Shown: positions 4,622 to 52,207, counted from the first letter of the whole stretch. The stretch is 63,867 bases of DNA, filler included, from an uncultured Methanosarcinales archaeon (GCA_964608065.1; 8 parts of 8 records of this genome joined end to end with filler, not necessarily neighbours in it), one strand, 5' to 3'. Notes: generated by a model from the sequence alone, not told the origin. Program-made: numbers and translations.

Positions 4622-4628
4622 TTATTTT

Positions 4629-18573: not shown

Positions 18574-18609
18574 ATAAGCGATTTATCCTGCAAGTGAGGT
18601 GTTTTTATA

Positions 18610-18888
18610 ATGGAGATGAAAATTGTCGAGGAGGGAAAAAATAAGTTAGTGTTTGAATTAACTAAAGTTAGTCATGGTTTTTGTAATATTCTTAAAGATC
18701 AGTTATGGAAAGGTGGTCATGTGAAGGTTGCTGCGTATAGAGTAGACCATCCTTTAATTGGAATTCCTACTTTTGTCGTCGAGACAGATGGAAGTATAAG
18801 TCCTAAGAATGTTTTGTTAGCAGCTATCAAGAAGTTAGATGGAGTTGCTGATAAGTTAAAGAAAGAGTTTGCTAAAGAGTTAAAATAA
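18610..18888 (+). CDS. rpoL: Archaeal RNA polymerase subunit L (Rpo11)
   Basis: HGFCNIL..VKVAAYRVDHPL. Confidence 0.92.
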   Translation: MEMKIVEEGKNKLVFELTKVSHGFCNILKDQLWKGGHVKVAAYRVDHPLIGIPTFVVETDGSISPKNVLLAAIKKLDGVADKLKKEFAKELK

Positions 18889-18902
18889 TAAAAAAAAAAA
18901 AA

Positions 18903-19463: not shown

Positions 19464-19543
19464 TTCTATAGAATTCTGGCAGTACAGAGCCTGTAAAAAT
19501 AGAAAAGTATAAAAATCAGTGGTGCCTACGTTTGTAGGAATAG

Positions 19544-20089: not shown

Positions 20090-20139
20090 AATTCTTTAAT
20101 GCATCTTATATTATCAAGCTGCATATATACTAGTTTCTT

Positions 20140-21051: not shown

Positions 21052-21214
21052 TTTTCATCCCCCAATCAAGTATTATTGTGGATTATAATAATGGTATATT
21101 TAAACATTTCTATACTTGAGTACTCTAGAGTACTCTAAGTTTGTATAATGGATTTATTAAAACAAAATAAAAATTCGTAACATTTTTAAAGAATGAATTT
21201 TAACCATATGTAAA

Positions 21215-22731: not shown

Positions 22732-23546
22732 ATTGTGTGTGTTAAGTAAATGTTTTTATATTTATTTTTTAAGTTTTTATACGCTTGTTTTTGCAGATCA
22801 TTATTTTGGAATATTCCGAAAACTGAGGGTCCTGAGCCAGACATCAATGAAGCTAAAGCTTTGTTGTTAATTAAATCTTGTTTTATTTCATTTATTATTG
22901 GATTTTGTTTTATAATATGTTGTTCAAAATCATTAAATAAATGCTTTGCAATATAGTTAATATCAGAGTTATTGATTGCTTCTAAGATGTCTTTTTGATT
23001 TGTTTTTTTATAGGTTTTGAACAAAGAGTATGCGTTTTTTGTTGATATTTGGATTTCTGGTGTTATTAGAATCAATGGAGTATTAGGTATTTTTTTTAGT
23101 TTTAGTAATAATTCACCTTTTCCTTTAACCAAACAAGTATGGCCTGTCAAGCAGAAAGGAACATCAGAACCTATTTCTAAAGCTAAATCTATTAAATCTT
23201 GGAAAGAAAGGTTTAAATTCCATAGTTTGTTTAAAGCATATAATGTTGTTGCAGCATTGCTTGAACCTCCAGCTAATCCTGCCGAGATTGGAATGTTTTT
23301 TTTTATTTTAATTTTGATGCCTTGCTTTACATTGAATCTGTCTTTTAGTAATCTTGCTGTTTTTCCAACAATGTTGTTTTTTTTTATTTCTTTGCAATCT
23401 ACAATAATGTCTTTGTGTTTTTTAAATTTTAAAGTATCATGAAGATCTATTTGATTCATAATAGAAGAAATATTATGATAATTATCTTTACGTTTTTCTA
23501 TAACATTTAATGTTAAGTTTATTTTTGCAAATGATTTTAGCTGCAT
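22728..23546 (-). CDS. ispE: CDP-ME kinase
   Basis: AKINL, IPISAGLAGGSSNAA, GSDVPF, MSGSGP; likely start MQLKSF. Confidence 0.95.
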   Translation of the reverse strand: MQLKSFAKINLTLNVIEKRKDNYHNISSIMNQIDLHDTLKFKKHKDIIVDCKEIKKNNIVGKTARLLKDRFNVKQGIKIKIKKNIPISAGLAGGSSNAATTLYALNKLWNLNLSFQDLIDLALEIGSDVPFCLTGHTCLVKGKGELLLKLKKIPNTPLILITPEIQISTKNAYSLFKTYKKTNQKDILEAINNSDINYIAKHLFNDFEQHIIKQNPIINEIKQDLINNKALASLMSGSGPSVFGIFQNNDLQKQAYKNLKNKYKNIYLTHTI

Positions 23547-24685
23547 TTTATTACACTTACTATAACAAAGCATTGGATTCCTAATCCTTTACCCCAAGGT
23601 GTAAGTTCTTCACCGCTTGTAGTTGTTATTCCTATGTCATTCCCAGTTATTCCCAGGATAGTCTTAAGACTATGTTTTATTTTATCGACTACAGGTTCTA
23701 ATTTTGGAGTTTTGGCTTCAACCATTATTCCGATGTTGTTTATTTTGTAATTTTCTTTTTTTAGAAGCTCTAAAGCTAGTTTTATGTATTGTTTTGAATC
23801 TTTAATACCTAGATTTTTGCATAAATCGTCACAATAGTGGCCAATAGACTTTTTTCCTATTGCATTTGTAATAGCATTGAATAAAGCATGCAGAATAACA
23901 TCACCATCTGAGTTTGCTTCTAGTTTATTTTCATTTTTAAAGAATAATGTTCCTAATGTTAATCCTTTTTTATTAGAGAATTTGTGTGAGTCCTGGCCTA
24001 AGCCGATTCTTGCATTGTTTGAGATAAATTTAAGATTTTCATAATCATTTTGAGTAGTTATTTTGAAGTTTTCTTCTGAGCATTCTACTAATTTAACTTT
24101 ATGGTTTAGTCTTTCAACTAAAGCCACATCATCTGTTGCATAGAAATTATCTGCTTTTGCTTTTTCAAATGCTTTTAATGCTAAATCATATCTTATACAT
24201 TGAGGCGTTTGTATTTGGTATAAATTAGAACGGTCTAATGTTTTTTCTACAAAATTATCTTTTACTTGCTTTATTGTGTCTTTTGCTTTAAAACCTGCAA
24301 CAGAAGCTCCGTGTTTTTTAGCTTGTTTAATGCATTCATTGATTGTTTTTTGTGTAATTAATGGGTTTGCTGCATTATGTATTACTATTATGTCATTAGA
24401 TTTTGCTTTTATTGATTTTATTCCATTATAAACAGAATCTTGTCTTTTTTCTCCTCCAATAACTATTTTCTTTATTTTTTTTAAGTTGAATTGTTTTAAT
24501 AGATTATTTAGAATGTGTGCGTTTTCTTCACTTGTTACTATGGTTATTGTATCAATATCAGAATCTTCAAATTGTTTTAAAGTATGGTATATTATGGGTT
24601 TATTGATTATGTTTAAGAATATCTTGTTTAATGATTTATTCATTCTTGTGCTTTTTCCAGCACCAACTATAATAGCATGGTTCAT
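23537..24685 (-). CDS. ispDF: Bifunctional IspD/IspF
   Basis: GAGKSTRM, GGEKRQDSV, QTPQ, KITT (IspD); RIGLGQDSH, SDGDVILHA, TTSGEEL (IspF). Confidence 0.93.
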   Translation of the reverse strand: MNHAIIVGAGKSTRMNKSLNKIFLNIINKPIIYHTLKQFEDSDIDTITIVTSEENAHILNNLLKQFNLKKIKKIVIGGEKRQDSVYNGIKSIKAKSNDIIVIHNAANPLITQKTINECIKQAKKHGASVAGFKAKDTIKQVKDNFVEKTLDRSNLYQIQTPQCIRYDLALKAFEKAKADNFYATDDVALVERLNHKVKLVECSEENFKITTQNDYENLKFISNNARIGLGQDSHKFSNKKGLTLGTLFFKNENKLEANSDGDVILHALFNAITNAIGKKSIGHYCDDLCKNLGIKDSKQYIKLALELLKKENYKINNIGIMVEAKTPKLEPVVDKIKHSLKTILGITGNDIGITTTSGEELTPWGKGLGIQCFVIVSVIKCS

Positions 24686-24810
24686 GGATTAACCCCCTAG
24701 AAGCTGATAATAAATTGGGTTTTATAATGGTTGTGGTTTAGTTATTACTTTCGTAGAATATAAATGTTTAAATATTATTTATTGAATTGGTAGATATAAG
24801 GTGGTGTATA

Positions 24811-25353
24811 ATGAAAATATTTGGGAGTGGTAAAGCAAAATATAAAGATGAAGGTTTGTATTCCCTAATCCAACCTGTAATTGAAGCTAACTTTAAAACT
24901 TACGGGGAACCCCCGGGTACAAATATTTATAGAAAAGAGATGAGGAAACTTAGGAAAGGTGAGCCACAGAAAATATTACAGGAATATCCTCTTGCTAGAC
25001 AAATAGTGTGGGCGTTATTGAGTGAGGAACGCTGGGTTAGAGTATTATGTGAGAAATGGGCTTTTGAAAAAGAATCAGTTTTTTTTGATGGGGTTAAAAA
25101 AGAAACACTTGAAAATACTTTAGATGCTCTCCGAAAAGGTGGTTTATTAGATATGGTAGGTGATTGTTTTAGTAGTTCATATTGTTTTGCAAGTGAATTA
25201 ATTACTGAAATGAGCAAAGGTACTTTTTGGAACCCTCCATCTGTAAAAGGGTTTGAATATAGAGTCAACGAGGAGTTGAGAGAAGCATTAATAAAATTTT
25301 TACAACCATATGAATCAGAAAAACGCCAGTATCAACTTCCTAAGAAGTCTTGA
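24811..25353 (+). CDS. Hypothetical protein lying antisense between dxr and ispDF
   Basis: ORF with own TATA box and GGTGG RBS. Confidence 0.65.
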   Translation: MKIFGSGKAKYKDEGLYSLIQPVIEANFKTYGEPPGTNIYRKEMRKLRKGEPQKILQEYPLARQIVWALLSEERWVRVLCEKWAFEKESVFFDGVKKETLENTLDALRKGGLLDMVGDCFSSSYCFASELITEMSKGTFWNPPSVKGFEYRVNEELREALIKFLQPYESEKRQYQLPKKS

Positions 25354-26470
25354 TTATTTCTTCACTTTTTTTTCTAGCCCATTTATCAGCTTCTAGAATT
25401 TCATCTATATCTGGGTTTTTGATTAAGGAATGGGAATCCATAACTGATTTGATTGTTTCTGGAATTTTTAAGAAAGGTATTTTATCCTGTAAAAAAGCAT
25501 TAACTGCTATTTCATTAGCTGCATTCATAACAGAAGGAAGTGTTCCTCCAATAGTTCCTGCATCATAAGCGTATTGTAAACATGGGAATAGTTCTAGATT
25601 TGGTTGTTTGAATGTTAATTCCTTAGCTTTTACTAAATCTAAGGTTGTCAAAGTGTCATTAGGTAAGCGTTTTGGATATGTTAAAGCATATTGTATAGGA
25701 ATTTTCATAGAAGGGATTCCTAATTGAGCTATAATTGACTTATCTTTGAATTCAACTAAAGAATGGATTATAGATTGTGGATGGATAACAACTTCAATTT
25801 TATTATAAGGCATGTTGTAAAGCCAGTGTGCTTCAATAACTTCAAAGCCTTTGTTCATTAAAGTTGCACAGTCAATGGTAATTTTAGCACCCATATCCCA
25901 AGTTGGGTGTTTTAGAGCGTCTTTTGCTTTAACTGTTTTCATTTGCTCTAAATTAAGGTTTTTGAAAGCTCCGCCTGAGCATGTTATTATTATTTTGTTT
26001 ACTTCTTTTTGATTTTCTCCATTTAGGCATTGGAATATAGCAGAATGTTCAGAATCTATAGGCATTAATGAAATTCCTTGTTTTTTTACTTGTTCCATTA
26101 CAATAGAGCCAGCAGTTACCAAAGTTTCTTTGTTAGCTAAAGCTATGTTTTTTTTGTGTTTTATAGCTTCTAAAGTAGGTAGAACACCGATAGAGCCAAC
26201 AAGAGAGTTAATTACAGTATCAGTTTCATTCAAACAAGCTATTTTTTTTATCCCTTCCAACCCAGAATATACTTCAATATCAACTTTAGATTTAAGTTCA
26301 TCTGCTTTTTCATTATCCATAACTGCAACTGCTATTGGATTGAATTCTTTAATTTGTTTTTCAAAGATTTCAATATTTTTATTGCAAGTTAATCCAATTA
26401 GTTTGAATTCATTAGGAAACTTCTTGATTATTTCTAAAGATTGCTGGCCAATAGAGCCTGTTGAGCCTAA
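25340..26470 (-). CDS. dxr: 1-deoxy-D-xylulose 5-phosphate reductoisomerase; first residues lost at contig end
   Basis: LGSTGSIG at contig edge; LANKETLV, PIDSEHSA, HPTWDMGAKITID, NAANE. Confidence 0.96.
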   Translation of the reverse strand, partial: LGSTGSIGQQSLEIIKKFPNEFKLIGLTCNKNIEIFEKQIKEFNPIAVAVMDNEKADELKSKVDIEVYSGLEGIKKIACLNETDTVINSLVGSIGVLPTLEAIKHKKNIALANKETLVTAGSIVMEQVKKQGISLMPIDSEHSAIFQCLNGENQKEVNKIIITCSGGAFKNLNLEQMKTVKAKDALKHPTWDMGAKITIDCATLMNKGFEVIEAHWLYNMPYNKIEVVIHPQSIIHSLVEFKDKSIIAQLGIPSMKIPIQYALTYPKRLPNDTLTTLDLVKAKELTFKQPNLELFPCLQYAYDAGTIGGTLPSVMNAANEIAVNAFLQDKIPFLKIPETIKSVMDSHSLIKNPDIDEILEADKWARKKSEEIIKTS

Positions 26471-26668
26471 NNNNNNNNNNNNNNNNNNNNNNNNNNNNNN
26501 NNNNNNNNNNNNNNTTAATTAATTAANNNNNNNNNNNNNNNNNNNNNNNNNNNNNNNNNNNNNNNNNNNNACATACATAATTAAAAAACACAATAGGATT
26601 TATAGTTTACTTTTGTCGTTAACTATAACTTGCAAACATTTAAATATATCTTTAGTGTAAGAGGATAG

Positions 26669-35047: not shown

Positions 35048-35316
35048 GTGCTTCTTGAACGTGATGAACCATCATCCTCGGATAGTGCGATTTTTAATCC
35101 TTGCTTCANNNNNNNNNNNNNNNNNNNNNNNNNNNNNNNNNNNNNNNNNNNNTTAATTAATTAANNNNNNNNNNNNNNNNNNNNNNNNNNNNNNNNNNNN
35201 NNNNNNNNTATAGTAGTAAATTTAAGTAAATTAAAAAAAATTTTAAAAAAAATTTAAAAAAAAAAAAAAAAAGATTTATATATAAGTTATTATATATTGA
35301 CTATAGATGATATATA

Positions 35317-35541
35317 ATGGCAAGCACAACTATACAACTTGATAAATCAATTGTAAATTCATTAAAAGAGGTAAGGGAATATCCTAGGCAGACCTATAAT
35401 GAACTTATTAAAGGTATGATCCAGTTATTTAAGAGTGTAAAAAAAAAGAATCAATACGATGAATTTCTTCATAAAATTCAGCAAGCAAAGATGAAAGAAT
35501 TATGGGACAACAGGGAAGATGATGAATGGGAGAACGCTTAA
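35317..35541 (+). CDS. Antitoxin-like protein
   Basis: TTIQL..TYNELI; LWDNREDDEW tail; upstream of PemK. Confidence 0.75.
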   Translation: MASTTIQLDKSIVNSLKEVREYPRQTYNELIKGMIQLFKSVKKKNQYDEFLHKIQQAKMKELWDNREDDEWENA

Positions 35542-35589
35542 AAATAGTTTCACGATTTTTGGCGTGTCAAAAACAGGAGGTTTTTAAAC
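35534..35589. repeat. Double-hairpin palindromic element between antitoxin and toxin
   Basis: CGCTTAAAAAT..ATTTTTGGCG and AAAAAC-AGGAG-GTTTTT; resembles the reverse complement of 36984-37040. Confidence 0.6.
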
Positions 35590-35901
35590 ATGCCTGAAGC
35601 AGGAGATGTAGTTTTAACTAATGTTCAATTTGCTGATACTTTTGAAATCAAGAAGAGGCCTGCTTTGGTTTTATTTGAGGAATTTGATAATGTTGTAGTG
35701 GCAGGAATAACAAGTAATCTTGAGATGAAGGGCATACTTTTAAAGAAAAAAGAAGGTGCAGTAAAAGATAGTGTTATAAAACTAAATTATATATTTACTA
35801 TTTCTAAGATGATGATAGAGAAAACACTATTCTCTCTATCTAAAGAGAAAAGAAAAGAAGTATATGATGAATTAGTTAAAAGATTGAAAGATTTGTCTTA
35901 A
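35590..35901 (+). CDS. PemK/MazF family toxin
   Basis: GDVVL..F.D..KKRPALV..ITS. Confidence 0.9.
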   Translation: MPEAGDVVLTNVQFADTFEIKKRPALVLFEEFDNVVVAGITSNLEMKGILLKKKEGAVKDSVIKLNYIFTISKMMIEKTLFSLSKEKRKEVYDELVKRLKDLS

Positions 35902-35953
35902 ATAATTTTAATAGAAAACTATTTATAGCTGTTAAATCTTAAAATATTCTATC

Positions 35954-36406
35954 ATGGCTAAAACTATTTCAAAAGATACTCCATTGGCTGAGATAACTTT
36001 AAGAAGATATGAGAAGCCTGATAATTTAAGTGATAGGGGGCTAGTTAGGAAGTTATGTTTGAGTATTGGATTATTGCAGCCAGGAGATTCCAGGGATGTT
36101 GTAGTTGATGTTCTGCATGTTATGCTTAAGAATAAAGATAAAGAGCTAAGTTCAGAAAAAGTTAAGGAATTGGTTATTAAATTAAGAAAGCAGAAGAAAT
36201 TAGCATTGCATGGAATAGCTTCTTCTAATATAAGAAGGCAGTTGAAAAGGTTAAGAGCTTTGTTTTTGATAGAGAAGGTTGCTAATAAATACAGAATTAA
36301 TGAGAAAGCATCTTTATTAGAGATATATGAAGAGAAGATAGAGAAGTTTTTGTTAGAATCTATTAAAAATAGGGTTAAAGAATATTTCAAGGCTGTTTCT
36401 AAGTAG
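35954..36406 (+). CDS. Conserved winged-helix-like hypothetical protein
   Basis: EITLRRYEKP, LCLSIGLLQPGDSRD, SNIRRQLKRL. Confidence 0.8.
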   Translation: MAKTISKDTPLAEITLRRYEKPDNLSDRGLVRKLCLSIGLLQPGDSRDVVVDVLHVMLKNKDKELSSEKVKELVIKLRKQKKLALHGIASSNIRRQLKRLRALFLIEKVANKYRINEKASLLEIYEEKIEKFLLESIKNRVKEYFKAVSK

Positions 36407-36448
36407 TAAGATTTATATATGATTTATAATCAGAAAAATTGAAAAAAA

Positions 36449-36535
36449 GGTACTGGGAAATCAGAGATACGAGAAAATCAAAGATTTTCTGTATCTCCTG
36501 AAAATCGAAAAGATTTTCATGAGATTTCCGGTACC
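36449..36535. repeat. Branched palindromic element: two GAAAATC/GATTTTC hairpins closed by an outer stem
   Basis: GGTAC..GGAAATC / GATTTCC.GTACC; GAGATAC/GTATCTC; AGAAAATC/GATTTTCT; TGAAAATC/GATTTTCA. Confidence 0.85.
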
Positions 36536-36563
36536 TCTTCGTAAAACTCAGAGGTGATAAATT

Positions 36564-36692
36564 ATGGAATGCGATAACTGCAATGGAAAATTAACTAAGA
36601 AAGATAGTATGAACAGCGGTAATGCTAAGTATGTAAAGTATGTCTGTGATAAATGTGGTAATGTAGAGAATAAGTGTGAAGGGCTTACATAA
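36564..36692 (+). CDS. 42-aa zinc-ribbon microprotein (absent from ORF track)
   Basis: GAGGTGA RBS; MECDNCNGKL...YVCDKCGNVENKCEGLT*. Confidence 0.75.
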   Translation: MECDNCNGKLTKKDSMNSGNAKYVKYVCDKCGNVENKCEGLT

Positions 36693-36733
36693 AGCAAAAA
36701 TTTTAAATAAAGTCTCAGTTAATCATAAACATT

Positions 36734-37924
36734 ATGCAAGAAATTTATGAACCAAGAGAAGACTCTTATTTATTATTAAAACAGGTTAAAAAATACTCTA
36801 AAGGTATTGTTTTAGACATGGGAACTGGTTCTGGGATACAGGCTTTAGGAGCTGCTAAAAATAAAAATGTAAAAAAAGTTATTGCTGCAGACATCAATAA
36901 AAAAGTAATTCAATCATTAAAAAAAAATAAAATAAAATTTATTCAAAGTGATCTGTTCTCAAATATAAATCAAAAGTTTGATATGTCGGTAAATCGCAAA
37001 GCGATTTCCGATCATGCTCAAAAACCTATGGTTTTTGACACAATCATATTTAATCCTCCATACTTGCCTGAAGATCCAAAACTAAAGGATTTGACTTTGG
37101 ACGGGGGGAAACAGGGCTATGAAGTTATTGAAAGATTCCTGAATGAAGTTAACAATTACCTTAAAACTGATGGAATAATATTGATTGTGTTCTCTTCTTT
37201 AACAAAAAAAAAGAAAGTTGATGAATTTATTCAGAATAATATGCTGGAGTTTAGGTTATTGGAAAAACAGCATATTTTTTTTGAAGATTTGTATGTTTAT
37301 TTGATTGAAAAATCTGAAATATTAAAACAATTAGAGAAAAGAAAAATAAAAAACATTAAAAAACTTACAAAAGGTCATAGAGGATTGATTTATACTGGAA
37401 ATAATAAGGAGATTACAATCAAAATAAAAAATCCTGAGTCTGAAGCTATTGACAGGATTAAAAACGAAGTAAATTATTTAAGATTATTAAACAAACATAA
37501 TATTGGTCCTAAACTATTATTTTTTTCTGATGATTATTTTGTCTATGATTTTATCGACGGAGATTTTATTGAAGATTATATAAAAAAATCAAGTAAAAGC
37601 AATATAATCAAAGTGTTAAAAGAAGTTTTTGAGCAAATGTTTGTTTTAGATAAATTGAAAATAAACAAAGAAGAAATGCACCATCCTGTGAAACATGTTA
37701 TAATTAGCAAGAATACGCCTGTATTGCTAGATTTCGAGCGTTGTCGTAAAACTTTAAAACCCCATAATGTAACACAGTTCTGCCAGTATTTGATTAAGAT
37801 TACAAAATTGTTGAAAGAAAAGAAAATAAACATTAATAAAGATAAAATAATTGAATTATCTAAAAGGTATAAGAAAAAATATGATAAGAAGATTTTGGGG
37901 TTGATATTAAATGAAATTCAATGA
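36734..37924 (+). CDS. HemK2/N6AMT1-like methyltransferase fused to a small kinase-like domain; carries a 19-aa insertion
   Basis: IYEPREDS, DMGTGSG, FNPPY; KGHRG, KEEMHHP, LLDFE. Confidence 0.9.
   Translation: MQEIYEPREDSYLLLKQVKKYSKGIVLDMGTGSGIQALGAAKNKNVKKVIAADINKKVIQSLKKNKIKFIQSDLFSNINQKFDMSVNRKAISDHAQKPMVFDTIIFNPPYLPEDPKLKDLTLDGGKQGYEVIERFLNEVNNYLKTDGIILIVFSSLTKKKKVDEFIQNNMLEFRLLEKQHIFFEDLYVYLIEKSEILKQLEKRKIKNIKKLTKGHRGLIYTGNNKEITIKIKNPESEAIDRIKNEVNYLRLLNKHNIGPKLLFFSDDYFVYDFIDGDFIEDYIKKSSKSNIIKVLKEVFEQMFVLDKLKINKEEMHHPVKHVIISKNTPVLLDFERCRKTLKPHNVTQFCQYLIKITKLLKEKKININKDKIIELSKRYKKKYDKKILGLILNEIQ
36984..37040. mobile_element. 57-bp in-frame palindromic insertion
   Basis: TGTC...GACA ends, two hairpins; removal gives KFDTIIFNPPY. 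Confidence 0.75.
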
Positions 37925-37979
37925 AAAAGTTTACAAAATTGTAAAAAAAATACCAAAAGGAAAAGTAACTACATATAAA
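37911..37979 (+). pseudogene. Orphaned original 5' end of the MGMT/ogt-family gene
   Basis: MKFNEKVYKIVKKIPKGKVTTYK, then homology stops; frame ends at TGA 38019-38021. Confidence 0.85.
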
Positions 37980-37981
37980 AA

Positions 37982-37996
37982 CGGAAGATTTATATA
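37982..37996 (+). promoter_or_regulatory. BRE/TATA promoter carried by the endonuclease insert
   Basis: CGGAAGA-TTTATATA about 22 nt before ATG 38018. Confidence 0.6.
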
Positions 37997-38017
37997 TTCA
38001 AAAATCTTTATTTATTT

Positions 38018-39316
38018 ATGAGAACTTGGAAGAAACATGAACTGGATTTCTTAAAACAGAATTATAAGACTTTAGATTATAAATATATTCGTAAAAAATT
38101 AAATCGCTCGATAGGAAGTATATACTGGAAATGTTTTGACCTAGGGTTGAAGAAAGGTAGATGGACTGAAAAAAATAGACTAACTAAAAATAAGGTAATT
38201 AAATTGTTAATAGAACAAAGTAGAAAATTAAACAAATCTCCATCTGTAAGAGACATACCTATATCTTTAAGATCTGCTTGTCAAAAACATTTTGGCAACT
38301 TTAATAATGCAAAAAAACATGCAGGTTTAGGTATCAAAGAGTATTATCCAAAATTAAAAAAACAATGCTACAATGAAAGTAAAGAACTAGCTTATATAGC
38401 TGGTGCACTAATTGGTGATGGTAGTTTTAGATTACAAAAATCTAAGAAGAGGTCATGTTATGTTATGATTTTTGCAACTAAAGATAAAGATTTTATGGAT
38501 TTTTTTGTTCATAATTTTAATAAGTGGTGTAATTATAAACCTAAAATAAAAAAAAAAGAAGGGGGCTATAAAAAATTTCCTAGTGGTAAATATTATAATT
38601 ATAATGAGACATACATAACTCAGATTCCTTTTAAAGAAGCCTGGAAATTTTTAAAAAAATTTAAGGATAATCCAATTTTTTGTATAAAATTATTTTCAGA
38701 TGAAAACCTTAAATGGTTAATTAAGGGTTTATGGGATGCTGAAGGATGTGTAAGCGTAACAAAACAAGGATATATGAGAATCTATTTTAGTAATTCTGAT
38801 AAAAAAGTAATAGACTTATATAAAAGATTATTAAAAAAATTTAATTTTACATTTTCTCTTTACAAACAAGGTAAATCCGTTAATATAAATATACTCAACG
38901 AATATGAAATGTTAAGATTTATTAACCTAATTTATGGAATAACTATAAAAAGAAAAGAAACAGAAGCTATAATAAACAAATTAAGAAACCAAAAAATTTC
39001 TAAAGATGATGAGAATTTTACACAAGCTGTTTATAGACTGGTTAAACAGATTCCTCGTGGACGTGTGTCTACTTACGCTAATATTGCACGAGCTCTAAAA
39101 ACAAAAGCATACAGAGCTGTTGGTAATGCTTTAAGATGTAATCCCTATGCTCCAAAAGTGTCATGTCATAGAGTTATTGCTTCTGACGGAAGTTTAGGCG
39201 GGTTTATGGGCAAAACTAAAGGAAAAACAATTGAAAAGAAGATTAGATTGTTAAGAAAAGAGGGAGTAAAGATAAATAAAAATAAAATAAATTTAAAAAG
39301 ATATTTATGGAAATAA
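38018..39316 (+). CDS. LAGLIDADG endonuclease fused to a complete MGMT (O6-alkylguanine alkyltransferase) domain
   Basis: AYIAGALIGDG and LIKGLWDAEG; then VYRLVKQIPRGRVSTY..RAVGNAL..SCHRV..LLRKEG; no intein termini. Confidence 0.9.
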   Translation: MRTWKKHELDFLKQNYKTLDYKYIRKKLNRSIGSIYWKCFDLGLKKGRWTEKNRLTKNKVIKLLIEQSRKLNKSPSVRDIPISLRSACQKHFGNFNNAKKHAGLGIKEYYPKLKKQCYNESKELAYIAGALIGDGSFRLQKSKKRSCYVMIFATKDKDFMDFFVHNFNKWCNYKPKIKKKEGGYKKFPSGKYYNYNETYITQIPFKEAWKFLKKFKDNPIFCIKLFSDENLKWLIKGLWDAEGCVSVTKQGYMRIYFSNSDKKVIDLYKRLLKKFNFTFSLYKQGKSVNINILNEYEMLRFINLIYGITIKRKETEAIINKLRNQKISKDDENFTQAVYRLVKQIPRGRVSTYANIARALKTKAYRAVGNALRCNPYAPKVSCHRVIASDGSLGGFMGKTKGKTIEKKIRLLRKEGVKINKNKINLKRYLWK

Positions 39317-40240
39317 TCATTTCTTATTCTTTTTCTTAACTTTCTTTATCTCTTTGTCAAGATCTAGTTCTTCTAATAGCTCTTTGTATCTGTTTCTGAT
39401 TGTGACTTCTGTTACACCAGCTACATCTGCAACTTCTCTCTGAGTTCTTTTTTCACCATGTATCAAAGCTGCAACATATAAAGCTGCTGCTGCAATACCA
39501 GTTGGGCCTCTTCCAGAAGTTAATTCTGCTTTCTGAGCTTTTTCTAGAATTTCAACAGCCCTTGATTGAGTTTCAGGGCTTAATTTCAAAGATGAAGCGA
39601 ATCTTGCAATATAATCTGCTGGATTTGAAGGTAATATTGTTATACCTAATTCTCTTGTGACAAATCTATAAGTTCTTCCGATTTCTTTTTTCTCTATACC
39701 TGAAGCTTCTGATAATTCGTCTAATGTTCTTGGAACTTCATGCCTTCTACAAGCAGCGTATAAAGCTCCAGCAACAACAGATTCCATACTTCTGCCTCTA
39801 ACTAATCCTCTTTGGACAGCTAGAGTGTAAATTCTTGCTGATTCTTCTTCAACTGAACCTGGAAGCTTCAAATAAGAAGATACCCTCTTTAATTCAGCTA
39901 AAGCAAGCTTCAAATTACGTTCAATAGCTGTAGAAATCCTGTATTGCCATTTTCTAAGTCTAAAGAACTTATTTCTGTTTTTATCTCCTAAACCATATAA
40001 ATCTGATTTTGTTCCAACTTCTGTTCCTAACCCTTGATCATACTGTGTATAAGTCATAGGAGCTCCTGTCCTACGTTTTTTTTCACCATCATCACTATCA
40101 AATTCTCTCCATTCTTGTGTAAAGTCAACCATCTTGTCTTCTATGACTAGACCGCAGTCTTTACAGATGACTTCTCCTTTTTCTTTATTTAAAAAAAGGT
40201 TAATTCCACCACATTCTGGACATTTTTTTACATAAGACAT
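39317..40240 (-). CDS. tfb: Transcription initiation factor IIB
   Basis: CPECG zinc ribbon, EWREF, RGRS, TQREVADVAGVTEVTIRNRY. Confidence 0.97.
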   Translation of the reverse strand: MSYVKKCPECGGINLFLNKEKGEVICKDCGLVIEDKMVDFTQEWREFDSDDGEKKRRTGAPMTYTQYDQGLGTEVGTKSDLYGLGDKNRNKFFRLRKWQYRISTAIERNLKLALAELKRVSSYLKLPGSVEEESARIYTLAVQRGLVRGRSMESVVAGALYAACRRHEVPRTLDELSEASGIEKKEIGRTYRFVTRELGITILPSNPADYIARFASSLKLSPETQSRAVEILEKAQKAELTSGRGPTGIAAAALYVAALIHGEKRTQREVADVAGVTEVTIRNRYKELLEELDLDKEIKKVKKKNKK

Positions 40241-40616
40241 TTTTTATCACCATGATATTTTTATATCTAAAGAATTATGCTTTAATGTATTCTTTATTCA
40301 GGTAAGCACCCCCGTTATAATAATCCAATAATTACAATAAATTTATAAACAGAATGCGTATCATATATATAAAGGTTTCTGTTTTTTTTTGTGTTTTTTA
40401 GCAAAACTTATAAAGGGTTTTATTATGTAAATAGTCTTGAAAAGTTAGTTTATAGTTTTTATTGACTCTATTTTTTTAAAAAAAAGGTTTAAATGAGTCT
40501 TAAAAGTATAATAAAGCTTGGTTTAAGCTCTTATTAGTAAATAAATGATTATTAACTTTAGGTTAGTCAATAATTAGCAAACTTTTTAATGATTTTTGTT
40601 TTATAGAATTATTTTA

Positions 40617-40630
40617 ATAAAATTTATAAA
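40617..40630 (+). promoter_or_regulatory. TATA box of tRNA-Ser
   Basis: A-rich BRE and TTTATAAA about 25 nt upstream of the tRNA. Confidence 0.65.
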
Positions 40631-40655
40631 CAATAGCAAATACCTATAAACCTAT

Positions 40656-40838
40656 GCCACGGTGGCACAACCTGGTAATGCGGTGGCCTTGAGCCAATTT
40701 TTGCTAGTAAGCCGCTTTCCGCAAGGATATCTCGGTTCAAAACGACTGGTTACGCTCGGTCGACACGCAAGGTGCGGCATAAAACCACACTTGCTCGCTT
40801 GTCGCTCGCAACTGGTCGTGAAAGTCCGAGCCGTGGCG
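40656..40838 (+). tRNA. tRNA-Ser(TGA) with two introns (40694-40709 and 40742-40824); CCA not encoded
   Basis: Acceptor GCCACGG/CCGTGGC plus G73; anticodon stem GTGGC/GCCGC with TGA at 40690-40692; long variable arm; T stem CTCGG/CCGAG. Confidence 0.92.
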
Positions 40839-40898
40839 TTTTATTATTCTGCAGAACCATAAATTTTTTAAATAGAAGTAGAATTTCAATTTGTTAAA

Positions 40899-41744
40899 AT
40901 GGATGGAGTAATTAGCGAAATGACAGAGGGAATGGTAAAGTTAGATGAATTAACTTTAAAGTATGGTAAAATAATCAAAAGAAAAAATATAAGACTTGAA
41001 CGTCAAGATCCTCATAAAATATGGGAAAATTTTTTGACAGACCAAAAAACTGGTAAAAGATATCAAAGAGCAGAAATAGAAGAAGAACCTACTATAAGAA
41101 TACCTGAATTTTCAGGTGTTAATAGGGAAAAAGCTACTAAGCAAAAACTTAAAACATGGTCTATAAAATTACAAGAAAGAAAAATGTTAAATAGGATTGC
41201 TAATGCAATTAACACTGAACCCCCTTATCCAACCAGTGTTTGGTTAACAGATAGTGAATTTTCTGAAGAAGCTTGTTTCTTATACAAATACTTAAATCAG
41301 GAGAGATATTCCAGAGCAAGAGCTCTCTTTTTACAATACAAAGAAAGATTTCCAAAGTCTTTTTTACGTAAGCCTTCAGCTCATACTCAACTGCTAACTC
41401 AATTAGAAGAAATTGTTTTTGGAGTATACGACGAAAAACTTATTGACTCAATTCCTGAAGAACAATTTTATGGAGAACGTCTTGAACCAAGAATCCATGT
41501 AACAATCTATGAAGGTGGTGAAGTAAAAATTGATGAATTTGAACCAACTACTTCTATAAAAGATGAAAAGTTTAAAAAAATAAAAAAAGTAGGGTCTTAT
41601 TTCAACTTAAAGAAGGGAAGAAAATCACATACACAAGATCACCAAGTCAATATTACTAGATTACCAATACAACATGGTGGTTCTGGACAACAAGTTAATC
41701 TTCCGAACCCATACAGTTCAAGAAATTTCCCAATAAAGAGATAG
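40899..41744 (+). CDS. Hypothetical protein
   Basis: 281-aa ORF preceded by a TATA-like element. Confidence 0.7.
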   Translation: MDGVISEMTEGMVKLDELTLKYGKIIKRKNIRLERQDPHKIWENFLTDQKTGKRYQRAEIEEEPTIRIPEFSGVNREKATKQKLKTWSIKLQERKMLNRIANAINTEPPYPTSVWLTDSEFSEEACFLYKYLNQERYSRARALFLQYKERFPKSFLRKPSAHTQLLTQLEEIVFGVYDEKLIDSIPEEQFYGERLEPRIHVTIYEGGEVKIDEFEPTTSIKDEKFKKIKKVGSYFNLKKGRKSHTQDHQVNITRLPIQHGGSGQQVNLPNPYSSRNFPIKR

Positions 41745-41822
41745 TCCTTATTCTCCAGCAATAAACAACATTTATATAATCTAAATTCTTACTTGTTATA
41801 TAGGGGTTGGAAGAAGAAGAAA

Positions 41823-42128
41823 ATGCTAGATTTTAAACACAAAGACCCTAAGATTTCTAGGGATACAAATATAACAAAGATAAAAGAAAAATTAGCTTTC
41901 TTAAACAATAAGGATGAAAAAACACAGGAAGAGCTGGATGATTATATCAGTTGTTTAAGTGATAATAAAACCTGCAAATATATGAAAGACTTTAAAGATG
42001 TAATTAACCTATGCAATAATCATTTGTTTGAATGCAACTTTAAATCAAAAGAAAGATTTAAGTTTGAAAACAGCTTAAAGCCTGAATGCAAAAGAGTAGA
42101 TATTCTAAGATTGAAGAGTATTTTATGA
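41823..42128 (+). CDS. Hypothetical Cys-containing protein
   Basis: ORF; likely ATG start MLDFKH. Confidence 0.65.
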   Translation: MLDFKHKDPKISRDTNITKIKEKLAFLNNKDEKTQEELDDYISCLSDNKTCKYMKDFKDVINLCNNHLFECNFKSKERFKFENSLKPECKRVDILRLKSIL

Positions 42129-43622
42129 TTATCTAACACTAACACCAGAATTCTCTTTTACTGTTTCTTTAGCATATTTCAGTTTTCTTTCGCTTTCTGC
42201 ATAAACTGTATAAACTTTTTCTCCTCTTTTGACTTTATCTCCAACATGCTTATAGAAATAGATTCCTGATTTTTTATTTGTAGGAGCTCCAGATATTCTT
42301 GCTATCTTGCTTGTATACCCATTGCTTATACTAACTATTCTGCCATTTTTAGTAGCATTTACATCAAAACTAAATTTTCCTAATCTTATTTTACTTGGAT
42401 CAGTTATTTTGCCACCCTGGGCTTTAATTATCTCAACCATCTTGTTATATGCTTTGCCTGTTTTCAAAATATCCAAAGCTTTTTGTTTTCCTTTTCCTTT
42501 AGCAGCTTTTTTGCCCATCTCTAGAATTAATCCTGCCATATACAGGCTTTTTTTTGTTAGATCTTTAGGAGCTCTTGGATCATTCTTTAATATCCACAGA
42601 ATATCTCTTGCTTCCAAAGCAGGACCTATACCATTACCTATTGGATGATCTCCTTTTGTGATAATAACTTTTATTGTTTTATTCAGTTTTTTTCCAATGT
42701 TTTCAAAACTTTTTTTTAATTTCAGGCTTTTCTCTTTTTCCTTAATTTTTGATCCAAGGCCAACAGGTATATCAATTAAGATATGAGTAGAAGAAACAGA
42801 ATGTTTTTTAGCCATGATTGAAGCCAATAACTGAGACTTAGCATCTATCCTTAATGGCTTTTCTACTCTTATTATTTGGTCATCAGCTGGAGCTAGATTT
42901 AAAGATCCACCCCAAACAATGCAGCCGTTAGTTTTCTCAACAATTTTCTTCATTTGTTTTATAGAGAAACTAACATTAGCTAAGACTTCCATTGTGTCTG
43001 CTGTTCCAGCAGGAGATGTTATGCTTCTTGAGCTTGTTTTAGGTATTGTTAAGCCAGCTGCTGCAACAATCGGAACTATAATCATTGTTGTCCTGTTTCC
43101 AGCTATACCTCCAATGCAATGTTTGTCTATTATAGGATATCTTTTTAATTTTAGGGTGTCTCCATGATGCGCCATACATTTAGTCAACCAGATTGTTTCA
43201 TCTAAATCCATCTGGTTAGAATAACATGCTGCAATAAAATAAGTCAGTTCTATATCACTAAGTTTGTTATTGACTATATCCCAGACTATCTGGTTTATTT
43301 CTTTTTTAGTCAGTTTTTTTCCATCTAATTTTTTTTTTATATAATCTAATGATAATGGTTTTTTTGCTGGAATTATTTTTACAACATCATTGTTCTTTAA
43401 ATTTAATCTTTCAATCACTTCCTCATAAATTCCAATCTTACCTTGTGAAACACTTTTTTTTGATTCAGCTATATCAACAACGCATGTTTGAATTTTGTTA
43501 TTTCTCCTTACTTTGACCCTATCTAATGCGTGTATATCTAACAGTTTAGCATCTTTTTCATTAAGAATTACTACTAAAGCTCCTCCAGTAGAAACATCCA
43601 TGTCTTTTACTTTAAGTTTCAT
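42129..43622 (-). CDS. AMP phosphorylase (archaeal thymidine phosphorylase family)
   Basis: DKHCIGGIAGNRTT, PKTSSRSITSPAGTAD, GIGPALEARD; start MKLKVK. Confidence 0.95.
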   Translation of the reverse strand: MKLKVKDMDVSTGGALVVILNEKDAKLLDIHALDRVKVRRNNKIQTCVVDIAESKKSVSQGKIGIYEEVIERLNLKNNDVVKIIPAKKPLSLDYIKKKLDGKKLTKKEINQIVWDIVNNKLSDIELTYFIAACYSNQMDLDETIWLTKCMAHHGDTLKLKRYPIIDKHCIGGIAGNRTTMIIVPIVAAAGLTIPKTSSRSITSPAGTADTMEVLANVSFSIKQMKKIVEKTNGCIVWGGSLNLAPADDQIIRVEKPLRIDAKSQLLASIMAKKHSVSSTHILIDIPVGLGSKIKEKEKSLKLKKSFENIGKKLNKTIKVIITKGDHPIGNGIGPALEARDILWILKNDPRAPKDLTKKSLYMAGLILEMGKKAAKGKGKQKALDILKTGKAYNKMVEIIKAQGGKITDPSKIRLGKFSFDVNATKNGRIVSISNGYTSKIARISGAPTNKKSGIYFYKHVGDKVKRGEKVYTVYAESERKLKYAKETVKENSGVSVR

Positions 43623-43772
43623 TTTAACAAACGCGTTTAGTGTTCTCTTTGATGTATATGTCAATAAAAGTCNNNNNNNNNNNNNNNNNNNNNNNNNNNN
43701 NNNNNNNNNNNNNNNNTTAATTAATTAANNNNNNNNNNNNNNNNNNNNNNNNNNNNNNNNNNNNNNNNNNNN

Positions 43773-44116: not shown

Positions 44117-45110
44117 TTACCTCCAACTTACATTAACATCATCAGTTCTTTCATAAGGTCTGATAGAACTATCTTTTGTTCTGATACCTGATTTATACTC
44201 CAACAAACCAAGATAAGCTATCATTGCTGCATTGTCTACTAAGAATTCATTTGGAGGAATAAAACACTTAAAACCATTATCTTTACACATTCTTTTAGCC
44301 ATTTCCTGAAAGCGTAAATTACAAGCAACACCTCCGCCTAAAATCAATTCTTTTTTATCACAATGATGCAAAGCTCTTTCTGCAACTTCTAAAAGCATTG
44401 CAAAAGCTGTTTCCTGCATTGAATATGCTAAATCTTCTTTTTTAAACTTTTTATCATATTTCTTTTTCAAATTAGTTAATAAACCACCAAAACTAACATC
44501 CATTCCTTTAACAACATAAGGTAATTCAATAAACTTTGAAGATTTTAAACTCAATGAATAAAGTTTAGGACCTCCTGGAAAACCTAAACCTAAATATCTA
44601 GCAAAAGCATCTAAGAAATTACCAACTCCAATATCTAATGTTTCTCCAAATATTCTATATTTTCCAGCTTCATAAGCAATAACTTGTGTGTTAGCACCTG
44701 AAGCATATAATAAAACAGGATCTTTTACAGGAAACAGCATATTACCTATTTCAAGGTGTGCAATACAATGATTAACACCTATTAAAGGTTTATTTAACAT
44801 CAAAGCTAAAGTTCTGGCAAAAAATGCTCCTATCCTTAAACAATGACCTATTCCGGGACCTTGTGAAAATGAAATTAAATCTACATCTTTTAATTTTAAT
44901 TTAGATTTATCTAATGCTTGTTTCAAAACCTTATCACAAACCTCAACATGATGCTCAGCTGCTTTAGCTGGGATTATTCCACCTGATGAAGTGATATAAC
45001 TATCTTTAACATTAGAAATTACTTTCTTATCTTTTACAATACCAACACCAAAAGTATCTCTGCCTTTAGAGTGCAGTACTTTCAATGCCGAGACATATTA
45101 AAGGTTTCAT
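44117..45110 (-). CDS. kae1: Kae1 t6A synthase (KEOPS), two exons: 45110-45071 and 45057-44117 (326 aa spliced)
   Basis: Exon 1 MKPLICLGIESTA, exon 2 (H)TFGVGIV; GPG, HCIAH, SGANT, GETLD, DNAAMIA. Confidence 0.9.
45058..45070 (-). other. 13-nt BHB-type mRNA intron in kae1 (predicted)
   Basis: Sense strand AAAGTA CTGC AC^T CTAAAG GCAG AG^A TACTTT. Confidence 0.85.
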
Positions 45111-46333
45111 CTTTCTAATTTCTTAGCCCTCTTATGTATATTTTTCGTTCTTATAGCAATATTTTCTTCATTTAATATTTTTTTTACTATTTCTGTTCCT
45201 TTTAGGCCATTCTTTATATTTTTTTCCACTTTTTCTATTAACCAAGGAGGCCATTTTCCAGATATTTTCTTAGCTTTATATAGTTTTTCCATTTGTTCAT
45301 ATCTATAGCTCTTGACAGTAGGATTAAATGTTGGTAGATTATATGCATCCTTAATACTAATCATTAAAGTCCATAATTTTGTTCTAGTAATAAGCCAAGG
45401 TTTAGCACTAATATTTAATGACTTAAGAATATTTTTTATAAGTCCTGTATTTGGTTCTGTTATGATACCAACTTTTTGACTACTAAAATCCACAAAACCA
45501 TCTGAATCTGCTAAGCCTTGAAGGAAAAAAATCTTAAACTCTCTTGGAGATTTTAAAATCCAATCTGCCCTAATCGGATTATATGTTGTTAATTCATTAT
45601 TCTTTAATCCAAGACAAACATTAAAAATCCATTGAATCAAAAGAGATGATTGAGAGATCCACGTGTAAAAAGGATAAACATTTCTTTTTCCTGCTGGGCA
45701 ATCTTTGCATCTGTTCATACGCATACTTAAGTAATTAGTGCATAGTTTTACAAATTCCCCTAACCTTTCATTTGTTTTATATCCTTTTGAAAGCCTAAGA
45801 TGGATTCTTCTTGTAACTCTTTGTTTTCTTTTTATTCCTGTTTTACTTGAATCTCCTATTAAAATACCTAATAGATAAGCAAAACATAGTTCTTTTTTAG
45901 TTTTTATTTGTTTTCCTTGTAATACCTTTAATTGTTTTATAACAGAATAAATATCATTATATGATTCTATTTTTTCAGGTACTTGAATCCATGGCTCAAT
46001 AAGTAGTCCTCCTCTAGTTGAATTTATAGAAAGCCACTTTAGATTGTTTTTTGGTTTTCCTAAGTTTAAATAATGGTCTAAAATTCTTATGATAAAGGGT
46101 TTGTTTCCTTCATATATCCAATGATCAATTTTTCTTTTTGAGATTTTTGTTAATTTTGCTATTTGTGAAGCAGAAAAACCCCGTGTCCTATGTAAAATTA
46201 CTTTTGAATATTCTTTGAAATCTTTTATATCTTTTTTATTAATAAATATTCCATAGAAATATTTTATGAAGTTTATACCCGGATGTCTTTTGAAATATTT
46301 AATTAAATTTTTATTAATTTTCATTTGAATCAT
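45107..46333 (-). mobile_element. Free-standing LAGLIDADG homing endonuclease gene inserted in the kae1 5' end
   Basis: AYLLGILIGDSS and FLQGLADSDG; N-terminal HTH; stop overlaps new kae1 start (ATGA). Confidence 0.88.
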
Positions 46334-51533: not shown

Positions 51534-52207
51534 ATGAGCTCTCAGGCGCGACAACTCTGTTATCCCCGGAGTAACTTTTTGGTCATCTCTAACCTCGATC
51601 AATGAGGTATAAAGGTTCGCTAGGCCAAACTTTCGTTTTTGGATTTCGTCTTGTTAAAAATCCAATTAGGCTGGCTTTTGCCCTTGCGCTCTACAGCCGA
51701 TATCTGACCGGCTTGAGCCAACCTTTGGACCCTGCTGATACATTTTCAGCAGGGTGCCACCCCAGCCAAACTATCCACCTACAGGTGTCCTTTTTGCAAA
51801 GTAAGCAACGTAAATTTTGTAGAGTGGTGTTACATCGTTGTCTACACTCAAACTTGCGTCTAAGCTTTAGCGACTCCCACTTACGCTATACAACAAAATC
51901 CACATCGCAACCATAGGCTATAGTAAAGTTTCACGGGGTCTTCGCTTCCCACTGGAAATCTCTGGCCTTTGCACCAGAATAGAGTATTCAGAGGATTCTA
52001 GTTGGGGACAGTGATGATCTCGTTACGTCATTCATGCAAGCCGTCATTCAAACGGCAAGGTATTACGCTACCTTAAGAGAGTTATAGTTACCCCCGCCGT
52101 TTACCAGNNNNNNNNNNNNNNNNNNNNNNNNNNNNNNNNNNNNNNNNNNNNTTAATTAATTAANNNNNNNNNNNNNNNNNNNNNNNNNNNNNNNNNNNNN
52201 NNNNNNN

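Follow-up and report, generated by a model that had tools for sequence, protein, structure and literature searches.

Probable insertion of a LAGLIDADG element carrying a substitute gene head into the ogt gene of an uncultured archaeon

How does an endonuclease gene come to lie within a DNA-repair gene, between two versions of that gene's beginning, and how is the interrupted gene still expressed? In textbook accounts, free-standing homing endonuclease genes are confined to intergenic sites unless they are hidden by an intron or intein, according to the accessible part of one introduction (PMC13619312). The question is raised by a 63,867-nucleotide (nt) stretch of DNA from an uncultured Methanosarcinales archaeon (GCA_964608065.1), referred to below as the window, in which a gene for an O6-alkylguanine alkyltransferase (ogt; MGMT family) begins, breaks off and is followed by a LAGLIDADG endonuclease open reading frame (ORF) that itself runs into an MGMT domain. 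A first-pass annotation of the sequence had read this arrangement as replacement of the ogt head by translational fusion, and had set beside it a second case, at kae1. Our analysis makes it probable that a LAGLIDADG element inserted in the 5′ coding region of ogt, bringing with it a promoter and a substitute head that is translationally fused to the endonuclease; the mobility of the element is well supported by comparison with relatives, although not proven. The window is a chain of about eight contigs, each roughly 8.4–8.8 kb, joined via paired 44-N spacers (N runs at 8854–8953, 17688–17787, 26471–26570, 35109–35208, 43673–43772, 52108–52207 and 60438–60537) across which linkage is not to be assumed. 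The ogt locus lies within contig 35209–43672 (8464 nt) and the kae1 case on the next one, so that the two are indeed on separate contigs.

The stump proper (37911–37979) is the start of an orphan MGMT/ogt gene, 23 codons long. Its ORF, 37911–38021, reads MKFNEKVYKIVKKIPKGKVTTYK and then continues through 13 unrelated codons; the first 22 residues match positions 1–22 of the 81 positions of PF01035 (E = 1e-5). The TGA stop codon of this ORF (38019–38021) overlaps, in a different frame, the ATG of a 432-amino-acid (aa) ORF (38018–39316), and 29 nt before that ATG stands a TATA box, TTTATATA (37989–37996). About this distance is expected between an archaeal TATA box and the start codon when the transcript is leaderless; the motif itself occurs 23 times in the 63.9-kb window when both strands are counted. 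A scan for sigma-70 promoters and terminators, which is uninformative for an archaeon, gave 0 terminators and 5 promoter-like sites where 10.4 were expected. The long ORF encodes a double-motif LAGLIDADG endonuclease joined to a complete MGMT domain (residues 333–417, covering profile positions 1–81 of 81 in PF01035; E = 6e-26), and this domain opens, with NFTQAVYRLVKQIPRGRVSTY, on a second copy of the ogt head, NFTQAVYRLVKQIPRGRVSTYANIARA (39014–39094). Stump, TATA box and endonuclease ORF are present where the first-pass annotation had placed them, and the ORF runs, as it had described, in frame into a diverged copy of the stump, with 12 of 22 residues identical between the two (tblastn E = 7.8e-7 in a local control search). 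There is no methionine between residues 296 and 397 and no in-frame ATG, GTG or TTG at the domain boundary, which agrees with its remark that no in-frame ATG lies near that boundary.

The two heads differ greatly in DNA. In the window the replacement head is only 57% identical to the stump, with a proportion of synonymous differences (pS) of 0.81 that puts synonymous sites near saturation (56–57% and 0.81–0.97 over the comparisons made), and so it is not a fresh duplicate of the stump. Its composition also sets it apart from its surroundings, as had been proposed from its codons: CGN codons account for 3 of the 4 arginines in the head and the next 7 codons, but for only 36 of 398 (9%) when 28 long ORFs of the window are pooled. 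The endonuclease part has 2 among its 15 arginine codons and the remaining MGMT part none among 6, so that CGN codons cease after the 28th codon of the MGMT domain. The GC content is 0.19 in the stump, 0.25 in the endonuclease part, 0.38–0.39 in the replacement head and 0.30 in the tail.

The arrangement recurs in relatives. A whole-protein search gave 65 hits at E ≤ 1e-3, among which 18 protein clusters (414–447 aa, 98–100% query cover, 45–57% identity) share the architecture of endonuclease plus MGMT and 9 further clusters (267–337 aa) contain the endonuclease only, ending just before the MGMT head. Setting aside two distant endonucleases (P0028 and P0029) and 36 MGMT-only hits leaves a family of 27 members. 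A genome scan found 12 loci, with the full fusion in 2 of them (L001 and L002), both in Woesearchaeota bins. All three loci with readable DNA (the window, L001 and L002) carry a stump in front of the fusion ORF, which answers the search that the first-pass annotation had recommended; in each the MGMT homology ends after V-x-T-Y, at the same codon, and TTTATATA lies 29–32 nt before the ATG. The L001 stump is a 32-aa ORF in which ..EFQEKVYKLCKKIPKGKVITY is followed only by I-Y before the stop codon, and it terminates 38 nt short of the ATG. The L002 stump is degenerate, having suffered a 2-nt deletion and lost the I-P-x-G motif; it ends ..GEVSTYK, and its stop codon overlaps the fusion ATG, as in the window. 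From the Tyr codon to the TATA box there are 5 to 15 nt of unconserved sequence, depending on the locus. Uninterrupted alleles are represented by 791 stand-alone MGMT-family proteins (55–177 aa, E ≤ 1e-3), and the archaeal groups concerned have an abundance of stand-alone MGMT genes encoding about 103 aa. Both stumps and empty alleles exist, then, and an architecture lacking either, which the annotation had named as the observation that would undo its proposal, was not what we found. One further relative, P0186 (366 aa), has the endonuclease and only the first 33 MGMT-domain positions, and is either a truncated or frameshifted fusion or a product of a contig end. In 23 of the 150 listed representatives, scanned because they extend beyond the endonuclease match, we found no other host domains, only extra helix-turn-helix modules and the truncated MGMT head of P0186.

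The stumps bear on when the insertions took place. When the stumps of the window and L001 are compared over 21 aligned codons, differences fall at 9.2 of 11.8 synonymous sites (pS 0.78) and at 7.8 of 51.2 non-synonymous sites (proportion of non-synonymous differences, pN, 0.15; Fisher p = 1.5e-4), which is the pattern of sequences that would have spent most of their divergence time encoding a working protein. Because their differences are mainly synonymous, both stumps appear to have been part of working genes until recently, and the decay of the L002 stump indicates that stumps are not generally preserved. The window and L001 are syntenic, with upstream genes 57% identical, fusion proteins 55% identical and downstream transcription factor B (TFB) genes 90% identical. 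On the simplest reading, intact ogt genes at this syntenic site were invaded separately, fairly recently in the lineages of the window and L001 and earlier in that of L002; the alternative is that the stump peptide is functional.

A second line of evidence comes from the affinities of the two parts of the MGMT domain. A tree was built from 138 rows, namely the 18 fused domains and, as the stand-alone comparison set, the best 120 of the 791 MGMT matches. In it, 14 of the 18 fused domains group with 6 stand-alone proteins (SH-like approximate likelihood-ratio test, SH-aLRT, 92), and the remaining four (the window, P0002, P0004 and P0011) fall in another clade (support 98) with 26 stand-alone proteins. 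We then scored sequences with position profiles contrasting the heads of the 14 main-group fusions with 107 stand-alone heads, that is, the 120 less 7 in which the anchor motif or the 12 preceding residues are missing and less the 6 placed among fusions by the tree. At +7.9 bits, the window head exceeds every one of these 107 (maximum 4.3, mean −26.3), whereas the stump, at −11.0, resembles stand-alone heads. The window tail scores −55.4, inside the stand-alone range (mean −75) and outside that of the main fusion group (minimum −19.8). Summed along the domain, the score rises to its maximum at residue 23, only two residues beyond the breakpoint, and declines steadily from there; a peak of at least 10 bits occurs in only 1 of the 107 stand-alone proteins. 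P0002 and P0011 are mosaic in the same way, with heads at +8.5 and +7.5 and tails at −71.8 and −23.0, respectively. The window head would thus be kin to other fusion heads and the tail, native-looking as the first-pass annotation had it, kin to stand-alone MGMTs, with the switch at the insertion point.

The residues at the junction also set fusion heads apart from most stand-alone proteins. Fusion heads read x-S-T-Y in 16 of 18 cases; among the best 120 stand-alone proteins, 95 read T-T-Y and 21 read V-S-T-Y (16/18 against 21/120 for the S-T-Y form, Fisher p = 4e-9, with kinship not corrected for). Between stump and replacement head, the five junction-adjacent codons all differ. Such a pattern is as expected if the enzyme recognises the DNA for G-K-V-T-T-Y in an empty allele and the head carried by the cassette is resistant. 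The L002 stump reads S-T-Y, so any rule of resistant heads is not absolute.

Fused and endonuclease-only proteins are not cleanly separated. On a tree of the 27 endonucleases the two forms interleave, with at least 3 changes forced by well-supported branches, and the fused P0018 is sister to the unfused P0027 with 100/100 support. A stop codon between endonuclease and head is therefore evidently gained or lost easily, to judge by these placements. The endonuclease-only P0021 and a 105-aa MGMT protein, P0068, are both recorded from a contig of 10776 nt and may be neighbours. The four fusions with a stand-alone-like MGMT never came together on this tree in 200 bootstrap replicates.

Both halves of the protein retain the hallmarks of their families. 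LAGLIDADG motif 1, LAYIAGALIGDG, lies at 38387–38422 and motif 2, KGLWDAEG, at 38723–38746; a homing-endonuclease-associated repeat occupies residues 56–104 and two LAGLIDADG_3 stretches span residues about 127–305. Residues D134, G135, D240, E242 and G243 are invariant in 27 of 27 family members, so that both catalytic acidic residues (D134 and E242) are kept throughout. An AlphaFold model of the fusion has a mean predicted local distance difference test (pLDDT) score of 87, with low confidence in the linker (pLDDT < 50 at residues 329–331). Foldseek comparison of this predicted structure gave bI3 maturase and I-DmoI as the best PDB matches of the nuclease core, the I-DmoI match covering residues about 120–312 (E about 1e-8, template modelling (TM) score 0.71–0.74 normalised to the target, ~21% sequence identity), and the model predicts the repeated alpha-beta-beta-alpha-beta-beta-alpha core within a monomer. 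Because the catalytic acidic residues are invariant in all 27 members and the I-DmoI-like model is confident, the endonuclease is, by these signs, under selection. The MGMT part matches solved alkyltransferases, for example 1mgt at E = 4.7e-11. The acceptor cysteine within P-C-H-R-V separates true transferases from alkyltransferase-like proteins that lack it; the window retains it, as the first-pass annotation had noted, in the sequence SCHRV (39161–39175, Cys codon 39164–39166). This change from Pro to Ser is unusual: PCHR[VI] is kept by all but 3 of the stand-alone proteins (117 of 120) and all but 3 of the fused ones (15 of 18). PF01035 also forms the C-terminal module of other multi-domain relatives (PF04493+PF01035 and PF12833+PF01035+PF02805), and many engineered MGMT chimeras are found among the solved structures matched; from these natural and engineered fusions, MGMT is tolerant of N-terminal partners.

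Together these observations suggest the following course. A free-standing LAGLIDADG gene would have inserted in a single-domain alkyltransferase gene just after the codons for ..K-V-T-T-Y-K. The cassette would extend from about 37983 to about 39091 and comprise the TATA box for a leaderless transcript, the endonuclease ORF and a substitute head, the last a diverged stand-in for roughly 25 displaced ogt codons that is fused in frame to the 3′ end of the endonuclease. By joining the resident ogt tail, this head would complete an MGMT domain, available only as the C-terminal domain of the 432-aa protein; after insertion the native promoter and start would drive only the stump, and the rest of ogt would be expressed from the cassette promoter. 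The endonuclease would cut uninterrupted ogt alleles at the DNA encoding G-K-V-T-T-Y, and the break would be repaired from the element-bearing allele, with the stump and the upstream gene as the left arm and the ogt tail as the right. Since the substitute head differs at every junction-adjacent codon (including Thr to Ser), an occupied allele would not be cut again, nor would the head recombine with the stump. Conversion tracts of varied length could leave some fusions with a wholly cassette-type MGMT and others with only a cassette-type head. As the MGMT part lacks a promoter or start of its own, a frameshift or stop in the endonuclease should also abolish MGMT, and this 'hostage' effect should slow the decay of the selfish gene. 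Homing by site-specific cleavage has indirect signs in the breakpoint common to 3 of 3 loci, the substitution pattern of the stumps and the head/tail mosaic. What the sequences themselves show is the layout of the locus, its return elsewhere at one breakpoint, unbroken catalytic motifs and a mosaic in composition and similarity; where the enzyme cuts, that it still homes and that the two domains are active is what we infer.

Could the locus instead be a stable domain fusion, that is, one ancient insertion in an ancestor of these Woesearchaeota-like archaea, inherited vertically since, with the nuclease possibly used by the host and the stump a leftover kept for translational coupling or as a small peptide? 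The synteny of the window with L001 suits such a history, as does the grouping of 14 of the 18 fused MGMT domains, and the overlap of the stump stop with the fusion ATG in the window and L002 could serve coupling; a single origin is also compatible with the approximately unbiased (AU) tests given below. Yet a non-functional stump should be unrecognisable at such divergence, whereas two stumps keep an MGMT head with mostly synonymous substitutions; the third has decayed, which argues against uniform selection on stumps, and the 38-nt gap in L001 means that coupling is not general. A history of this kind also sits poorly with a window head and tail whose affinities switch at the breakpoint, with the interleaving of fused and unfused forms and with nuclease catalytic residues invariant in 27 of 27 members, and we regard it as unlikely. 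A closer variant, differing from the proposed insertion only in the length of the converted tract, would have the mobile unit consist of the endonuclease and a complete resistant ogt, the window tail being imported as well. Double-strand-break repair in homing gives co-conversion tracts of variable length, so long tracts are to be expected, and the 14 fusions and 6 stand-alone proteins that form one MGMT group, with head and tail agreeing, fit this account. In the window, P0002 and P0011, however, stand-alone-like tails follow fusion-like heads, and in the window the rare CGN codons stop after the 28th domain codon; that the whole gene was carried there seems improbable.

Two further possibilities fare worse. 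That two ogt alleles were misassembled, or that the head was recently duplicated in place without any part played by the endonuclease, might be suspected in a short contig of a metagenome bin whose exact protein is found on that contig only. The same order of stump, endonuclease and head is nevertheless present in two independent assemblies (L001 and L002), so that misassembly, which the first-pass annotation had also raised, is unlikely, and copies only 57% identical in DNA are too diverged for assembly collapse or recent duplication; we consider an artefact very improbable. Removal of the endonuclease as an intein or intron, with the stump joined to the rest of ogt, comes to mind since LAGLIDADG endonucleases are usually housed in such elements, as stated in the accessible part of PMC13619312. 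Splicing would duplicate the head here, a complete second head being present. An intein was rejected on the frames, the stump and the endonuclease ORF being in different ones with 13 unrelated codons and a stop between them, in line with the annotation's finding of no intein splice residues. An intron was rejected because the second head makes splicing unnecessary and no Rfam family matched 37600–39500 at its gathering score: at E ≤ 1 the scan of that interval, which covers Rfam families only, gave a single match, to a miRNA model, at 20.4 bits (E = 0.92) where the gathering score is 48. Either form of splicing is scarcely credible.

Several points weigh against the proposed insertion. The fusion proteins of the window and L001 have diverged (55%) about as much as their upstream genes (57%), which is compatible with one old, vertically inherited insertion. 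The AU test rejected neither a single clade for the 18 fused MGMT domains (p = 0.119; 64 rows were used out of 138, an author-chosen subset of the 18 fused domains, all 32 stand-alone proteins of the two relevant clades and 14 others) nor one for the four fusions with a stand-alone-like MGMT on the endonuclease tree (p = 0.069). Of the separate kinships of head and tail that the annotation had wished to see examined, the different affinities stood, in the profiles and the change point, and the incongruence between trees was not significant; recombination between cassette and host is accordingly a matter of what profiles and codons indicate, and the trees do not prove it. The profile scores rest on 21-residue heads and a reference set of 14 sequences, and P0004, the fusion at L001, lacks a clear mosaic (head −4.3, tail +5.4). 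The left junctions differ in sequence, with spacings of 5–15 nt, which precise homing alone would not explain, and the count of stumps rests on the DNA of 3 of the 27 family members. Finally, SCHRV takes the place of PCHR[VI] in the window, so that MGMT activity of this copy is not assured; departures from the motif in 3 of 18 fused proteins (SCHRV, QCHRV and PCYKI), against 3 of 120 stand-alone ones, may hint at relaxed constraint on MGMT in fusions.

The features of the locus are collected in Table 1. The 3′ end of the upstream gene overlaps the stump ATG by 14 nt, and this overlap is the native operon context of ogt. That gene joins PF05175 to a C-terminal half with a weak match to a choline/ethanolamine-kinase model (E = 2.7e-4), and the union of methyltransferase and kinase-like parts is kept in L001 (2239–3432, 57% identity). 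Elsewhere on the ogt contig there is a MazF/PemK-like toxin gene (35590–35901; PF02452, E = 1.7e-9). Another contig of the window, 17788–26470, holds an archaeal-type RNA polymerase subunit (Rpb11/RpoL-like, 18610–18888) and genes of the methylerythritol phosphate (MEP) isoprenoid pathway, namely IspH/LytB, IspE, a fused IspD–IspF and Dxr (21922–26320). The MEP, or non-mevalonate, pathway is normally bacterial, and its genes are unusual beside archaeal information-processing genes.

Table 1. Features of the interrupted ogt locus, in window coordinates
Feature	Position	Strand	Basis or remark
Upstream host gene: methyltransferase with kinase-like C-terminal half	36734..37924	+	PF05175, E 1.3e-11; orthologue upstream of L001 stump
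Orphan native ogt head ('stump'): codons 1–23 (plus Asn24), MGMT family	37911..37982	+	PF01035 match
Putative cassette left end: unrelated stump-ORF codons, TATA box TTTATATA, stump TGA	37983..38021	+	
N-terminal helical DNA-binding region, residues 1–110	38018..38347	+	PF18780, residues 56–104, E 8.7e-6; helical in model
Double-motif LAGLIDADG core	38375..38953	+	PF14528, E 1.3e-16; PF03161, E 5.1e-7
Endonuclease–MGMT linker	38954..39013	+	Length varies among relatives; no start codon; indels in alignment columns 330–345
Replacement head: diverged second copy of ogt codons 2–27	39014..39091	+	In frame with endonuclease
Native-looking ogt remainder (tail)	39092..39316	+	Includes active-site Cys and stop codon
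Downstream host gene, TFB; right-hand limit of locus	39317..40240	-	PF00382, E 1.4e-47

Is the ogt element one of a kind? The kae1 case is real: on the minus strand of the next contig, an 8-residue stump, MNCLGIES, starts at 46513 and is followed by a TATA-like box, a LAGLIDADG ORF (46336–45107; Pfam E = 0.006) and a second kae1 head whose ATG overlaps the endonuclease stop. With this start/stop overlap, and a frame break after it, the kae1 element in this genome is not a fusion. The ogt and kae1 endonucleases are only distantly related (26% identity over 167 residues, BLASTP E = 0.023), and we rejected the idea that they are copies of one element. The kae1 replacement head (ATG at 45110) reads ..CLGIESTAL and then meets a stop, and the kae1 ORF resumes in the +1 frame from 45085; omission of 13 nt would bring the head and G-V-G-I-V into one frame (45040–45125, minus strand). 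Two homologues of the kae1 endonuclease, P0352 (574 aa) and P0359 (560 aa), continue in frame as far as ..LGIESTAH and stop at precisely that point, so that at least 3 genomes show the break. The RNA around it can form a long hairpin (−20 kcal/mol, z = −2.29, with 7 of 200 shuffles as good), whose bulges lie, in our reading, on the wrong sides for a canonical archaeal bulge–helix–bulge; a small intron, recoding and a recombination scar are all possibilities. The Kae1 Pfam domain was found in 0 of the 120 listed relatives of the kae1 endonuclease (224–716 aa) and in 0 of 6 longer ones that were scanned.

A locus in a Patescibacteria bin (L003, 3402–5015) offers the reverse arrangement. The sequence ..EIKEQGHCFCGLF.. 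closes a thioredoxin/ferredoxin-thioredoxin-reductase gene whose stop codon overlaps the start of a LAGLIDADG ORF (ATG; 3998–4972) that is 32% identical to the ogt endonuclease, and a 41-nt, 80%-identical copy of the gene end follows right after the endonuclease (4975–5015). By this layout L003 is a mirror-image tail replacement, and a bacterial counterpart of the fungal mitochondrial form described below. Gene-end duplicates were sought at nine distant endonuclease loci (L003 and L005–L012), and only L003 was convincing, the other 8 giving low-complexity or chance-level matches; L004 was excluded because its match lies in no ORF. Replacement of gene ends may be a general third route, beside introns and inteins, by which homing endonucleases enter protein-coding genes of DPANN archaea and Patescibacteria, a proposal to which we give slightly less than an even chance. 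Its 5′ form (ogt, kae1) would consist of promoter, endonuclease and substitute head, fused or start/stop-overlapped, and its 3′ form (L003) of substitute tail and endonuclease. If this is true, the fused 5′ form would hold a host function hostage, MGMT being made only by way of the endonuclease reading frame; the selfish gene would last longer for it, and novel multi-domain proteins, along with host genes of mosaic origin, would arise as a by-product.

Some consequences are practical. One source already names the L001-type fusion P0004 (Woesearchaeota) 'methylated-DNA-protein-cysteine methyltransferase', and annotation pipelines will call such genes by that name; the stump, the selfish element and the composite ancestry of the gene will then all go unnoticed. 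In phylogenies of these host genes, a head of foreign origin is combined with a native tail. The family is also a source of natural LAGLIDADG enzymes whose target, lying within a conserved coding motif, is predictable, as well as of a natural N-terminal fusion to MGMT. It suggests, too, an evolutionary idea, that a selfish gene is shielded from decay once it is fused to a domain of use to the host.

How does the ogt element compare with known systems? In the fusions of MGMT with endonuclease V, with AraC (Ada-type) or with Nudix, PF01035 is likewise the C-terminal module; those partners are repair or regulatory domains and come with no stump or duplicated head, whereas the partner of the ogt fusion is a selfish nuclease, and the fusion would be a by-product of its insertion. 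I-DmoI, the closest solved fold as compared with the predicted model, is similarly a monomeric, double-motif enzyme with acidic catalytic residues; it is intron-encoded in rRNA, and the ogt protein adds an N-terminal helical DNA-binding region and a C-terminal MGMT domain. Free-standing endonuclease genes of T4-like phages have their own expression signals, cut the neighbouring gene in genomes without them and co-convert a resistant flank, with no splicing. They stand between genes and have neither a stump nor a fusion, whereas the ogt element lies inside a coding sequence and has duplicated its head. The 'intronless homing' of these phage seg and mob genes is treated in the accessible parts of two sources (PMC2790892, PMC2988022).

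The nearest parallel is provided by mobile ORFs (mORFs) of fungal mitochondria, which, in the accessible part of one report, make 'gene hybrids', noted first in atp6 of Allomyces macrogynus and then in atp6, atp9, cox2 and nad3 of Glomus sp. (PMC3630166). There, the insert consists of an endonuclease ORF and a C-terminal segment of foreign origin, in phase with the host gene, and what was the native C-terminus persists as a remnant (PMC3630166); truncated atp6 and atp9 copies are also described, without a tie to endonuclease insertion, in the accessible part of another (PMC4162613). The accessible parts of PMC7902536 and PMC5626475 contribute nothing decisive. As far as these excerpts describe them, mORFs share with the ogt element an endonuclease ORF inside a coding gene with no intron or intein, a diverged duplicate of the displaced end and a native remnant; of the two copies, only the native one is similar to close relatives, and some of the ORFs are in phase with the host gene. 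The mORF, in the same excerpts, replaces a 3′ end, with the host promoter and start still serving, and belongs to a mitochondrion. The ogt element, by contrast, replaces a 5′ end, brings its own TATA box and ATG, leaves the host protein only as a C-terminal fusion to the endonuclease, and targets a DNA-repair gene in an archaeal chromosome, as the adjoining TFB gene attests. Titles and the openings of abstracts on LAGLIDADG in DPANN, or on archaeal homing endonucleases linked to methylguanine, in a collection that covers few subscription journals, mention no 5′ head replacement, no endonuclease–MGMT fusion and no archaeal example. To the extent of these sources, the principle of gene-end replacement is already known, from the 3′ ends of fungal mORFs, and its 5′, promoter-bearing, translationally fused archaeal form is new. 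Where free-standing endonuclease genes have been thought to need an intergenic site or the cover of an intron or intein, the ogt element would represent a different solution, found in the chromosomes of cells: it brings along a duplicate of the gene segment that it displaces.

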